Position numbers and translations under genes: made by a program
Notes under the pieces: model-generated
Database searches by the model: none
Told to the model about the DNA's origin: nothing
The model's input: only the letters and a program-made list of their open reading frames with translations
Sequence record: MK327943.1
Source: Escherichia phage vB_EcoM_G53
Strand: one strand, 5' to 3'
Length of the DNA: 64,000 bases
Shown: in pieces, positions 7,158-54,719 of the stretch
Numbering within the stretch: the first letter of the stretch is position 1
Layout: the number at the start of each line of letters is the position of its first letter

Positions 7158-8576
7158 TTATGGATATGTATAGATGATACCAGTTTCCAAAGCAGTTTTA
7201 TGGATGATGTATCCATTACGTGATTCTTGAACATCAACTTCCGGATAGTCTTTCATCATCTTCTGAAGAGTGTAACGATGCAGGTAGTATTTACTATCTG
7301 GATCTTCAGTTTTCCAATCTTTACCTTCTTCAGTCATTTTTTGGATTTCATCCATAACCCACCATCCGCACCAGATGTAAGCTGAAGTACGATGTGGAAG
7401 AGGATGAACATAAGGTAATTCACCTTCTGGTTCCGGAGCAACTTTATCAGTTACCTGAACTTGACCTTCTGCTGTAATAGTTTTGCTATCGTAATCAGTT
7501 GCAGTAATAGTTGCAGTAACTTCAATAGTTTGACTTCCAATAGATGAGGTATCAACGGTATATACATTAGTTGACCCTTCTACAGGAGAAGAATCTTTCT
7601 TCCATGAATACTCGATTTGCGCTTCTTCTGGAGCATCAGTGACATTAGCGGTAAATGTAGCCGAAGCATCTTGCTGAACGTTAATAGAAGGAGGAGTCAA
7701 TGTAACCCGTGGATTCATTGTCTTCTTATTAACCGTTAATGATACTTCATTCGAAGTAACTTCCTTTGCATCATAATCTGTCGCGGTTACTTGGGCTACA
7801 CATTTAATTCTTTTTACTCCACTTGTAGTCGGAGTATAGCTAAATGTAGAGTTAGTTTCTCCACCAACCTGTGAATCATCTACATACCACTGATACGTAG
7901 CAGACGCTCCAACCGGTTGAGAAGCTAAGGCAGCAGTAAATTGAACTGGGGTTCCAATTACTCCGGCTGAAGGACTATTGGGAGTTACTGCCAACGTAGT
8001 TGTCTGTGTCTTTTTATTAACAGTCAGTGACACTTCATTAGAAGTAACGCTTAGTGCGTCATAATCTGTTGCGGTTACTTGAGCCACACACTTAATTCTT
8101 TTTACCCCGCTTTCGGCAGGAGTGTAATTGAACGTAGCGTTAGTTGCTTCGCCAACAGGAGAATCGTCTACATACCATTGATAAGTAGCGTTTGCGCCTG
8201 ATGGCTGCGAAGCTAAAGCGGCGGTAAATTCAATAGCTGTTCCTATTACTCCAGCGTCAGGGCTATTAGGAGTTATAGCCAGAGTAGTTGTCTGAGTTTT
8301 ATTTTTAACTGTGATAGTTGCAGTAGCTTCTGCTGTTTCAGCTTCAGCGTCTGGAACTGTATTTGCTGCAACTACTTTAATAGTCTTTTGACCGGCAGGT
8401 CCTTTTAGTACATAACTAAAAGTTGCTTCAGCTCCATCTTGTGGAACATCATCCACAGTCCAAGCATATGTAATAGTTCCACCTTCAGCCTGACCACTAG
8501 GTGTGGCAGTAAACTGCTGGGTCTGTCCTATAACTCCAGTAGGTGTTTTAGGAGTTATATTAACTGTAAAAGCCAT
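7158..8576 (-). CDS. hoc: Hoc, highly immunogenic outer capsid protein with four Ig-like domains
   Basis: 472 aa, Ig-like repeats with YQWYVDD motifs, position hoc-inh; T4 Hoc is 376 aa; contains 96-aa internal tandem repeat. Confidence 0.85.
   Translation of the reverse strand: MAFTVNITPKTPTGVIGQTQQFTATPSGQAEGGTITYAWTVDDVPQDGAEATFSYVLKGPAGQKTIKVVAANTVPDAEAETAEATATITVKNKTQTTTLAITPNSPDAGVIGTAIEFTAALASQPSGANATYQWYVDDSPVGEATNATFNYTPAESGVKRIKCVAQVTATDYDALSVTSNEVSLTVNKKTQTTTLAVTPNSPSAGVIGTPVQFTAALASQPVGASATYQWYVDDSQVGGETNSTFSYTPTTSGVKRIKCVAQVTATDYDAKEVTSNEVSLTVNKKTMNPRVTLTPPSINVQQDASATFTANVTDAPEEAQIEYSWKKDSSPVEGSTNVYTVDTSSIGSQTIEVTATITATDYDSKTITAEGQVQVTDKVAPEPEGELPYVHPLPHRTSAYIWCGWWVMDEIQKMTEEGKDWKTEDPDSKYYLHRYTLQKMMKDYPEVDVQESRNGYIIHKTALETGIIYTYP
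7725..8300. repeat. Tandem ~288-bp repeat (2 copies) encoding duplicated Ig-like domain within hoc
   Basis: Protein residues 93-188 and 189-284 are ~85-90% identical (KTQTTTLA.TPNSP...SLTVNKKT). Confidence 0.85.
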
Positions 8577-28420: not shown

Positions 28421-28729
28421 TTACATAAGAAGCAAACGTTCTACCGGAGTACCATCAACCGAAATTACTTTATCAAGGCGGAAAGAACGCCACTGACCTA
28501 ACTTGGTATCGAATGCTCGAACTGATTCACGAGGTTCAGAACGAACTTCTGATGCCGGATTGTTATTTTCATATTTGACTTCAAGTTCATCGCGAGAAGC
28601 AAACATAGCGCGTACCTCACCGTTAGCCTTTTCAAATACAACACAATGAACGCCTACAGACAGAATAGTTTTAATACGTTCACGAAGAACCATAGTTTCT
28701 TGTTCAGTTAAAATCATATTATTCACCAC
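28421..28729 (-). CDS. Hypothetical protein (31.1 position)
   Basis: 102-aa ORF between cd and 31. Confidence 0.6.
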   Translation of the reverse strand: MVNNMILTEQETMVLRERIKTILSVGVHCVVFEKANGEVRAMFASRDELEVKYENNNPASEVRSEPRESVRAFDTKLGQWRSFRLDKVISVDGTPVERLLLM

Positions 28730-29300
28730 AAAAGTTTCGGATTTGTTCCCAATTCAGAGAACGAAGATTATTACGAGAGTACTGAATTACTTCAATACCG
28801 GCTTGTTTTAGAATGTCTGCCCAATTTTCAGGAGATCGGTCGTATAATTCTGCATATACAACCTTTTTAATACCTGACTGTGTAATAGCTTTAGTGCAAT
28901 CAGGACACGGAGAAAGCGTCGTATATAACGTAGCACCTTCAATAGAATTACCTTTACGAGCTGCAAATAAAATTGCATTCAGTTCAGCATGGATTTCATT
29001 ATTAGCAGACCATGCACTATGAGCGGCCCGATGTTCTTTAGCCAAAACAAAATTATCCACCCGTCCAAATGCTGTAGTGCCTTCTTTATGCCCAGCAACG
29101 ATGACCGGGCTTGGTTTATTCTTCAACCAACCGTTTTCGGATGCATGTTCGCAACAGTTTGTACCACCTGAAGGAGAGCCATTATAACCTGTAGAAATAA
29201 TGCGTCCATCTTTTTCAATGACGGCACCAACTTTCCATGAACAACATTTTGATTCTTGAGAAATCAAATAAGCAATTTGAAGATATGTGCTAGCTTTCAT
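28719..29300 (-). CDS. cd: dCMP deaminase
   Basis: 193 aa; matches recalled T4 Cd; HAELNAI and SPCPDC zinc-binding motifs. Confidence 0.95.
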   Translation of the reverse strand: MKASTYLQIAYLISQESKCCSWKVGAVIEKDGRIISTGYNGSPSGGTNCCEHASENGWLKNKPSPVIVAGHKEGTTAFGRVDNFVLAKEHRAAHSAWSANNEIHAELNAILFAARKGNSIEGATLYTTLSPCPDCTKAITQSGIKKVVYAELYDRSPENWADILKQAGIEVIQYSRNNLRSLNWEQIRNFCGE

Positions 29301-30347
29301 TATTGAACCTTATTAATATAAGTTAACAGCTCTTTAGTTTGTTCCCAACTGATGCACGCATCGGTAACGGAAACGCCATAGGACATATTATCAGAAATTT
29401 TTTGATTTCCTTCATGTAGGAATGATTCTATCATAATTCCTTTGACCAAATCATTAGCTGCTAAATTTTTACCAATACCAATTTGATTGCTATAATGCCC
29501 ATCAGCGTTTGCATGGCTACAGTCAACCATTACATAATGATTCAGACCTACTGCACTTGCTTTGTTAGAAGCTTCTTGAATATCAGAAGAATGATAGTTG
29601 ACCTACTGCACTTGCTTTGTTAGAAGCTTCTTGAATATCAGAAGAATGATAGTTCGGGCCGTTGGTCCCGCCACGCAATACGATATGCGTATTCTGATTA
29701 CCTTCAGCTTCAACAATGCCTACAGTACCATCGACGTCCATACCCATATACCGATGAGGCCAGGCGGCACTATACATCGCGTCTGTAGCTACTTTAATAG
29801 AACCATTGGTTGCGTTCTTGAAGCCTACGCACATCGGTAGACCTGAAGCAATTTCACGATGTGTCTGACTTTCAGTCGTACGGGCGCCAATAGCAACCCA
29901 TGAGAAAATACCAGAAAGATACTTAATCGTGAATGGGTCTAATACTTCAGTTGCTAATGGAAGTCCCATACGTAGAAGTTTACGACACAATGTTCGTGCA
30001 ACTATAAGACCGTGGTTCATATCAAAACTTCCGTCAAGATATGGATCATTTACAAGACCTTTCCAACCTACGGTAGTTCGAGGCTTTTCAAAATAAACGC
30101 GCATCACTAACAGAACATTAGGAAGACGAGTTTGAAGTTCAGCCAGACGTTTGCCGTATTCAACAGCAGCAATAGGGTCATGAATTGAACAAGGACCTAC
30201 AACAATAAGTTTGCGTGGGTCTTCACCGTTCATAATCGAATTAACTTGTTCGCGATGAGAAGCCACTTGTGATGCGTAAGCTTCCGACAAAGGAATAATC
30301 TCAGCCAGTTCTTTTGGAGAAATAAGTTTTCTGACGACAGGTAACAT
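29300..30347 (-). pseudogene. AroG-type 3-deoxy-7-phosphoheptulonate (DAHP) synthase, interrupted by a 55-bp tandem duplication
   Basis: N-terminal ORF 29583-30347 carries GPCSIHD, MRVYFEKPRTTVGWKGL, GARTTESQ motifs; C-terminal ORF 29300-29530 carries SHANADG...ESFLHEGNQ...SVTDACI; removing one repeat copy joins them in frame. Confidence 0.8.
29545..29654. repeat. Exact 55-bp tandem duplication (2 copies: 29545-29599 and 29600-29654)
   Basis: Direct reading of sequence; unit gacctactgcacttgctttgttagaagcttcttgaatatcagaagaatgatagtt. Confidence 0.95.
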
Positions 30348-51491: not shown

Positions 51492-54400
51492 ATGGCTACA
51501 TTAAAACAGATACAATTTAAAAGAAGCAAAGTGGCAGGAGTTAATCCTACTGCAGCACAATTAGCCGAAGGCGAATTAGCGATAAACTTAAAAGACCGAA
51601 CTCTTTTTACTAAAGATGACCTCGGTAATATTATTAGCCTAGGCTTTGCTAAGGGCGGGCAAGTTGACGGCAACGTTACTATTAACGGACTTTTGAGATT
51701 AAATGGCGATTATGTACAAACAGGCGGAATGACTGTAAACGGACCTATTGGTTCTACTGATGGCGTAACTGCAAAAGTTTTCAGATCTACACAGGGTTCA
51801 TTTTATACAAGAGCAACAAACGATACTGCAAATGCCCATCTTTGGTTTGAAAATACAAATGGCTCAGAACGTGGTGTTTTATATTCAAAACCGCAGTCTG
51901 AAAATGAAGGCGTAATTACAATGCGTGTTCGTCAAGGAACCGCTGCGGGAGCTCAAAATTCAGAATTTCATTTCATTTCTACCGATGGCGGTATCTTCCA
52001 GGCACGCAAATTAACTGCTTTAACTTCTATTAGTACACCAACTATTAGTGTTAATTTAATTAATCATGATTCTAAATCATTTGGACAATACGATTCGCAG
52101 TCATTAGTTCAATATGTTTATCCTGGAACCGGTGAAACAAACGGAATCAATTACCTTCGTAAAGTTCGAGCTAAATCAGGCGGAACCATTTACCATGAAA
52201 TCGCTTCTTCGCAAACCGGAAAAAGTGATGAAATTTCTTGGTGGACTGGAAATACAGCCGTTAATAAACAAATGGGTCTTCGTAATGATGGGTCTTTAGT
52301 ATTACGACGCTCGCTCGCAATTGGTACAATTACAACAGATGAAAACATTAATAACTACGGCTCCGCTGGAGCAATGGGCGAATGTTATATAGTTATCGGT
52401 GATGCATCAACAGGTTTATCATACAAAAAAACTGGAGTATATGATTTAGTTGCTAGTGGTCTTTCTTTAGCATCTATTACTCCTGATAGTTTCCGTAGTA
52501 CCCGTAAAGCGATTTTTGGGCGCTCAGAAGACCAAGGTACAACATGGATTATGCCTGGAACGAACGCTGCATTTTTATCGGTTCAAACACAGGCTGATGA
52601 AAACACTGCTGGAGACGGTCAAACCCATATTGGATATAATTCTGGCGGAAAAATGAACCACTATTTCCGTGGTAAAGGCAAAACTAATATTAATACTCAG
52701 GAAGGTATGGAAGTTAATCCGGGTATTTTGAAATTGGTAACTGGCTCTAATAATGTAATGTTTTATGCTGATGGCGGTATTACATCTGTTAAGCAGCTTT
52801 CAATATATAATGGCATATATTTAGCAGCTAATAATTCTACTGCTGGGCTAACATTCGCTCCAACTACTACAATTGATGGCACTAAGCAAATTTTGTGGGA
52901 AGGCGGTACTCGTGCTGGTCAGAATAAAAGCTATGTAACTGTTAAAGCATGGGGTAATTCATTTAACGCATCCGGCGATCGTAATCGTGAAACTGTATTT
53001 GAAGTTAGTGACGGGCAAGGATATTATTTTTATTCACAGCGTGTGGCTCCAAGTGGCTCTGAAACTACTGGGCCTGTTGTAACCCAGTTCAATGGACAAG
53101 TTAATGCTAGAGGAAGTATTATTACTGACGGAAGTCTTAGAGTTAACGGATTAAGTACATTATCCGGACAAGTTACTATGGATAACGGGCTTGTTTTATC
53201 CGGCGGTGGTTCTATTACCGGTCAAGTTAAAATCGGTAATACCGCAGATGCTTTCCGTATTTACAATGCTGAATATGGAGCTATTTTCCGTCGTTCTGAA
53301 GCGTCTTTGCATATTATACCTACACTTAAAGATGCAGGTGAAAGTGGTGGTATTTCTAACCTTCGCCCATTGAGTGTTTCTCTTAACAACGGTATGGTTC
53401 AAATGCGCCATTCTGTTACGTTAGGTGATGATGGTGCTGGCGGTAATATGGTGACCGTTGATAATGATAATAAACTTGTTGTTATAACTAGTCATAGTCG
53501 CATTTCTCCTAATTACCGTATGCAATTAGGACAATCGGCATATATCGACGCTGAATGTACTGATACTGCACGACCTGCTGGAGCCGGTTCTTTTGCTTCA
53601 CAAAATAATGAAAACGTTCGTGCTCCGTTCTATATGAATATTGATAGAACAGATACAAGCACTTATGTTCCTATTGTGAAACAAAGATACGTTCAAAATA
53701 ATAGTTGTTATTCTATTGGTACTTTAATTAATGGTGGTAACTTTAGAGTTCATTATCACGAAGGTGGTGACGGCGTTTCTACTGGTGCTATTATAAAGGA
53801 TCTTGGATGGGAATTTAATAAAAACGGTGATTTTTATTCTCCTGGTAAATTAGGCGCTGGTAATGTTCGTATTGGTACTGATGGTAATATCACCGGTGGT
53901 TCTGGCAACTTTGCTAACTTGAATACCACAATAAATAACCTTAAGACGGATATTGTCTCAAGTTATCCTATTGGTGCTCCGATTCCTTGGCCTACTGATA
54001 CACCTCCTGAAGGTTATGCCATAATGGAAGGTCAAACATTTGATGCTGGCTTGTATCCTAAGTTAGCTGCGGTGTATCCTTCCGGCGCTCTGCCTGATAT
54101 GCGCGGTCAAACTATCAAGGGTAAACCATCTGGGCGTGCTGTATTAAGTACAGAAGCAGATGGTGTTAAGTCACATAGCCATAGTGCAAGTGCATCAAGC
54201 ACAGATTTGGGTACTAAAAACACATCAAGTTTTGATTATGGTAGCAAAACGACTTCAAGCTTTGATTATGGTACTAAGACCAGTAATACCACTGGTAACC
54301 ATAACCATACAGTGAGTGGTAATACTAGTTCCGCAGGAGCTCACCAACACGCGCGTTCAGGTCCTCAGGTCACTGCTGCATGGGCAGACGATTTGTTTAG

Positions 54401-54719
54401 AGACGGGGTTACTACGATAGGTGCAAACTCATATGCTAAAATTAACTCAGGTATCACTGGTTCGACTTTAGCAACTAAGGTCGGTAAAACATCAAATGAC
54501 GGTGCCCACACCCATAGTTGGTCAGGAACTACTAGCTCTACGGGTAACCATGCTCATACGGTAGGTATTGGTGCTCATACCCATTCGGTAGGTATTGGTG
54601 CTCATTCTCATACTGTTGCAATTGGTTCCCATGGACATACAATAACTGTAAATGCCACAGGAAATACAGAAAACACAGTTAAAAACGTTGCTTTTAACTA
54701 TATCGTTCGTTTAGCATAA
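51492..54719 (+). CDS. 37: Long tail fibre distal subunit gp37 (receptor-binding) with His-x-His boxes
   Basis: 1075 aa; C-terminal repeated GxHxH motifs (NHNHT, AHTHS, AHSHT, SHGHT); followed by T4-type gp38. Confidence 0.93.
54180..54640. repeat. Short tandem repeats in gp37 tip-coding region
   Basis: Repeated acttcaagYtttgattatggta units and gtaggtattggtgctcat units. Confidence 0.7.

Follow-up and report, generated by a model that had tools for sequence, protein, structure and literature searches.

A perfect 55-bp tandem repeat dividing the DAHP synthase gene in a Mosigvirus genome record is probably an untrimmed assembly overlap

T4-like phages package their DNA by the headful mechanism, and their genomes are circularly permuted. 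The assemblers SPAdes and metaSPAdes use by default the k-mer lengths 21, 33 and 55, the final k being 55. In the SPAdes contig of the T4-like coliphage 107 (PMC10281100) and in the circular SPAdes contig of phage 55 (PMC10353447) a "55-bp terminal overlap" was trimmed by hand, and only then was the genome reopened for synteny with T4 or ST0 (PMC10281100, PMC10353447). Phage 55 belongs to Mosigvirus, the same genus as the phage considered here. A 127-bp version of the assembler terminal overlap has been reported (PMC5923482), and the same class of overlap was removed before genome reordering in a 2026 preprint.

The sequence studied here, further referred to as the window, is a stretch of 64,000 nucleotides from Escherichia phage vB_EcoM_G53 (MK327943.1), a T4-like coliphage of the genus Mosigvirus. 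It contains the 55-nt unit GACCTACTGCACTTGCTTTGTTAGAAGCTTCTTGAATATCAGAAGAATGATAGTT in two directly adjacent, 100% identical copies, copy 1 at 29545–29599 and copy 2 at 29600–29654. Tandem Repeats Finder describes the repeat with period 55, 2.0 copies, 100% matches and a score of 220, in agreement with an earlier note on this DNA that had reported an exact 55-bp tandem duplication at 29545–29654. The pair is the sole exact repeat of such size in the whole 64-kb window. Since the probability of a chance identity over 55 nt is about 4^-55, the repeat is not due to chance.

The novel junction is the boundary between the copies (29599/29600) and reads ...AGAATGATAGTT / GACCTACTGCAC..., also written as ...AGAAGAATGATAGTT / GACCTACTGCACTTG.... 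The repeat is situated in the middle of the DAHP synthase gene, unrelated to gene boundaries. No microhomology was found at the duplication endpoints (the left and right extensions are both 0 bp), and neither were hairpins, quasi-palindromes or repeats. The single-copy sequence contains no internal repeat or endpoint homology from which the duplication could be regenerated.

The interrupted gene and its predicted product

The whole DAHP synthase locus occupies positions 29300–30347 on the minus strand. Its length is 1048 bp as given and 993 bp (330 aa) when one copy is removed. As 55 mod 3 equals 1, the duplication causes an apparent +1 frameshift, which occurs after residue 249. On the coding (minus) strand copy 2 is read first and copy 1 second, and the premature stop codon (29583–29585) lies inside copy 1. 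The N-terminal ORF (29583–30347, minus strand) encodes 254 aa, that is, 249 native residues plus QLSFF, and ends in ...NKASAVGQLSFF followed by the stop within the second-read copy. The C-terminal ORF (29300–29530, minus strand) encodes 76 aa and starts at the native Met255 (MVDCSHAN...). Both the QLSFF terminus in the second-read copy and the restart at MVDCSHAN had been described in the earlier note, and our ORF boundaries confirm them. Deletion of one 55-bp copy yields a continuous 330-aa frame (...NYHSSDIQEASNKASAVGLNHYVMVDCSHANADG...). The note had further stated that this frame aligns with AroG, and the profile and structure matches given below bear this out.

The repaired 330-aa protein matches the Pfam family DAHP_synth_1 (PF00793) over profile positions 8–269 of 270 (E 6.8e-75), scoring 251.9 bits with the gathering cut-off of 25.5, while the two fragments cover profile positions 8–189 (254-aa ORF) and 197–269 (76-aa ORF) of 270. 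Its best solved relatives are AroF (6agm, E 4e-105) and AroG (1gg1/5cks, E 1e-91) from E. coli, the identity to AroF being 52.5% over 320 aligned residues. In the alignment with E. coli AroF (6agm), residues C53, H260, E289 and D311 of the repaired protein each stand opposite the same amino acid. We take them to be the four metal ligands, as derived from AroG structures. On the basis of these alignments, the repaired gene is predicted to encode a DAHP synthase of the AroF/AroG type (type I-alpha).

The 254-aa ORF keeps Cys53 and the KPRTT motif, and the 76-aa ORF holds His260, Glu289 and Asp311. Given the frameshift after residue 249, the 254-aa product would retain the Cys ligand only. A single uninterrupted polypeptide with all catalytic residues is absent from the sequence as given and appears after the removal of one copy. 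Complementation between the two ORFs as parts of a split enzyme was considered and set aside, given that the C-terminal ORF has no evident ribosome-binding site (no obvious Shine-Dalgarno sequence was seen upstream of it) and nothing suggests selection for a split form.

Relatives and genomic surroundings

The site is covered by 139 GenBank phage records. Among the matches listed, 30 out of 30 span 106 bp of a 161-bp query and are thus single-copy. With a 1251-bp query, 40 out of 40 among the matches listed span 1196 bp, being 55 bp short. No match to a 44-nt query centred on the copy-to-copy junction was found in 50,697 phage records, and the 32-nt junction was not found in IMG/VR. The exact 55-nt unit occurs in only one metagenome contig, in a single copy, and has no match in complete E. 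coli genomes. Ten independent contigs from Logan, ENA and NCBI were picked out because they contain the neighbouring cd gene in identical form, and each of them encodes an intact 330-aa DAHP synthase. At the protein level, the 90% cluster comprises 164 members, and 15 out of 15 among the members listed are 330 aa long. No product identical to the truncated 254-aa ORF is on record among about 15 billion proteins. The protein search likewise gave no 254-aa QLSFF product, phage matches from long contigs all having the length of 319–338 aa. The earlier note had proposed a search for single-copy versions in related phages, and all relatives inspected proved to be single-copy. Moreover, over its 993 nt the repaired gene does not differ at a single position from the intact gene of the independent Logan assembly ERR14231160 (100% identity), and hence the DAHP synthase gene of the window carries no other decay.

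Full-length homologues (about 319–338 aa, 63–79% identity to the window ORF) are present in several T4-like genera, the carriers being Edwardsiella phage PEi20, Erwinia phage Virsaitis27, Klebsiella phage pzk-kv8, Escherichia phage EcS1, Shigella phage SdyM_006 and Providencia phage PSTCR6. The N-terminus of these phage enzymes is shorter than that of the host AroF and AroG. The mean pN/pS of the gene among close relatives is about 0.28, and this value, together with the full-length homologues across T4-like phages, indicates that the gene is maintained by selection, as judged from sequence comparison. The literature searched offered nothing useful on the Mosigvirus enzyme, and no study of the role of phage DAHP synthase in infection was seen in it. 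Most likely, the phage carries an intact copy of the already well-known Mosigvirus DAHP synthase gene.

The nearest GenBank record is that of phage NicPhage (OY726582), with 99.1% identity over 24 kb. In the part compared, the aligned window is colinear with NicPhage save for the 55-bp duplication. The remaining small indels lie between genes or reflect alignment wobble that is compensated, and no other frameshifting indel was seen. The neighbouring genes encode the gp21 prohead protease, a Hoc-like Ig/PKD protein, gp31 (Cpn10-like), dCMP deaminase and PseT. The dCMP deaminase gene cd (28719–29300, minus strand) is the downstream neighbour; in the window as in the relatives, its start and the DAHP synthase stop have 1 nt in common.

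Several other features of the window were recorded. A 21-bp-period repeat (GACGACGATGACGAAGACGAT, 2.5 copies) at 205–257, upstream of the gp21 prohead protease gene (686–1327), would give an acidic Asp/Glu run if read in a plus-strand frame. A tandem repeat with the period of 288 bp (2.1 copies, 76% matches) at 7719–8309 lies within the ORF 7158–8576 (minus strand, 472 aa), whose PKD/Ig domains resemble the Ig-like repeats of Hoc-type head decoration proteins. In the gp37-like long tail fibre ORF (51492–54719), positions 51635–52434 have no blastn alignment to NicPhage and the flanks align at 97–98%; this part probably represents a receptor-binding segment that was swapped or is hypervariable. 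The same ORF has short tandem repeats of 30 and 27 bp towards its C-terminal end (54217–54273 and 54549–54613). Translated, the unit CATACTCATACGGTAGGTATTGGTGCT would read HTHTVGIGA, which recalls the His-x-His repeats at the tips of T4 gp37. In one of the relatives, phage WFbE185 (MK373778.1), a 240-aa GIY-YIG/NUMOD3 homing-endonuclease-like ORF (197–919) adjoins pseT; neither the window nor any of the other nine contigs has it at this place.

Origin of the repeat

We consider it likely that the 55-bp tandem repeat is an untrimmed assembler k-mer overlap, introduced by assembly or record handling and absent from the phage DNA. A short-read de Bruijn contig of a circularly permuted T4-like genome would close on itself, and its two ends would have in common a stretch exactly as long as the largest k-mer of the assembly, which is 55 under the SPAdes and metaSPAdes defaults. 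If the contig were then given a conventional start by rotation ("reopening"), or treated as circular and read through its ends, with this overlap still in place, the former contig ends would meet inside the sequence as a perfect, directly adjacent repeat of k bp. Such a repeat could fall anywhere; here it lies within the DAHP synthase gene. End-to-end joining of two graph-adjacent contigs would have the same effect. The real phage would then have one copy and an intact 330-aa DAHP synthase, predicted to be functional. We infer that this record passed through such an untrimmed-overlap workflow.

The repeat is as long as the final k-mer in a common setting of de Bruijn assemblers, and its copies are identical. 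The genome is T4-like, and that of the Mosigvirus phage 55 did assemble as a circular contig. The breakpoint looks arbitrary, falling mid-gene with 0 shared bases and no endpoint hairpins, and the repeat is absent from independent assemblies of near-identical genomes. Zero microhomology and the absence of endpoint hairpins or repeats are what an arbitrary contig break predicts and thus favour the assembly explanation; random breaks would share no base 56% of the time, (3/4)^2. Taken together, the default-k length, the perfect copies, the lack of microhomology, the uniqueness, the intact repaired gene and the documented practice of trimming 55 bp and then reopening the genome favour an artefact.

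We also sampled both ends of four Mosigvirus GenBank records and found no untrimmed k-sized terminal overlap; one of them, ST0, has a 10-bp overlap. Hence untrimmed overlaps are not the norm, and most submitters evidently trim them. For the artefact explanation this small sample carries little weight in either direction. The ST0 record (MF044457.1) is flagged as circular, and its first 10 bases are the same as its last 10 (ATCATCTGCT). Here a short end overlap was left untrimmed, broadly comparable to the one proposed for the window.

The uniqueness of the repeat also speaks against the possibility that the isolate underwent a genuine, very recent 55-bp tandem duplication, by replication template switching or illegitimate recombination during propagation, which inactivated DAHP synthase and left a fresh pseudogene. 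We regard such an event as unlikely, given that the duplication is unseen among the listed matches of the 139 GenBank relatives covering the site and among the listed members of the 164-member protein cluster, and that the gene is otherwise conserved (pN/pS about 0.28; several T4-like genera). Nor would a real event explain why the length, at precisely 55 bp, coincides with a default assembler k. Short direct repeats are the usual boundaries of slippage-type duplications, as known for T4 and bacterial duplication and deletion endpoints, whereas here both extensions are 0 bp; a search for literature on T4 duplication endpoints gave nothing useful. In favour of a real duplication, the sequence as given does contain both copies, and the N-terminal product loses His260, Glu289 and Asp311 through the frameshift. 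That the gene has no further lesion would suit a mutation only a few generations old as well as it suits an artefact. A 55-bp event is physically possible, and auxiliary metabolic genes are generally dispensable in the laboratory, so that the knockout of one during laboratory propagation would be unsurprising; the loss would be tolerated because the host AroF, AroG and AroH supply the pathway in rich medium. Still less probable is the stronger claim that the duplication is real in virion DNA and knocks out DAHP synthase as a heritable off state that reverts spontaneously through recombination between the copies.

Least credible of all, and in our view extremely improbable, is a reversible on/off switch, where gain and loss of the 55-bp copy by slippage or homologous recombination would toggle DAHP synthase expression. 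Copy number would indeed toggle the frame, 55 not being a multiple of 3, and a T4-like phage proficient in recombination might in theory reduce two perfect 55-bp copies to one. However, a switch would predict recurrence or copy-number polymorphism among relatives, and none was found: the two-copy state was seen in no other phage record, IMG/VR contig, metagenome contig or protein, and all relatives inspected are single-copy, so a switch is unsupported. Moreover, nothing in the single-copy sequence would lead to the duplication arising anew, and known contingency loci are short-unit tracts with copy number variable among relatives, unlike a 55-bp repeat. The earlier note had left three readings side by side. 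Among them the assembly artefact is strengthened by the length, exactness and uniqueness of the repeat, a recent inactivating mutation becomes less likely, and the slippage switch finds no support for want of recurrence.

With an untrimmed overlap as the preferred explanation, the apparent split of the DAHP synthase gene is most likely not a biological feature, and the main value of the observation lies in quality control. It would be wrong to read the apparent pseudogene as a case of gene loss or phase variation, or to cite it as evidence that Mosigvirus can do without DAHP synthase. In public phage genomes, an exact tandem repeat with the length of an assembler k (55, 77, 99, 127 or 141) may serve as a flag of such an artefact, further marks being the lack of endpoint homology and uniqueness among near-identical relatives. 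Should the duplication be real, it would be a modestly interesting case in which an auxiliary metabolic gene of a phage was newly knocked out in a revertible way.

Comparison with known systems

In Mosigvirus and other T4-like phages the DAHP synthase gene has the same position as in the window, immediately upstream of cd. The window gene shares 99–100% nucleotide identity with genes from HX01, ST0, JK45, Shf125875 and others that bear the annotation phospho-2-dehydro-3-deoxyheptonate aldolase. Compared with the inspected Mosigvirus relatives, only the window has the 55-bp duplication.

The repaired phage protein resembles the E. coli enzymes AroF, AroG and AroH (PF00793) in matching the family profile end to end and in having the metal-ligand residues of AroF. 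The E. coli AroF and AroG chains are 350–356 aa long, whereas the phage protein is about 20–25 residues shorter, with a shorter N-terminus and two short C-terminal deletions. Unlike the E. coli enzymes, the DAHP synthase of the window is, as given, divided between two ORFs, and it is a predicted enzyme.

Slipped-strand contingency (phase-variation) loci share with the window a reading frame that shifts with repeat copy number. They are tracts of short units, whereas the window has a single 55-bp unit with no polymorphism among the inspected relatives. De Bruijn k-mer terminal overlaps usually occur at the two ends of a linear contig, whereas the copies in the window are adjacent and internal; compared with the usual overlap, an extra step of rotation, reopening or wrap-around would have been needed. 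In the other respects considered, the window resembles the k-mer terminal overlaps of SPAdes and metaSPAdes (55, 77 or 127 bp): it has the 55-bp length, perfect copies, an arbitrary position, no endpoint homology and a genome of the kind that assembles as a circle.
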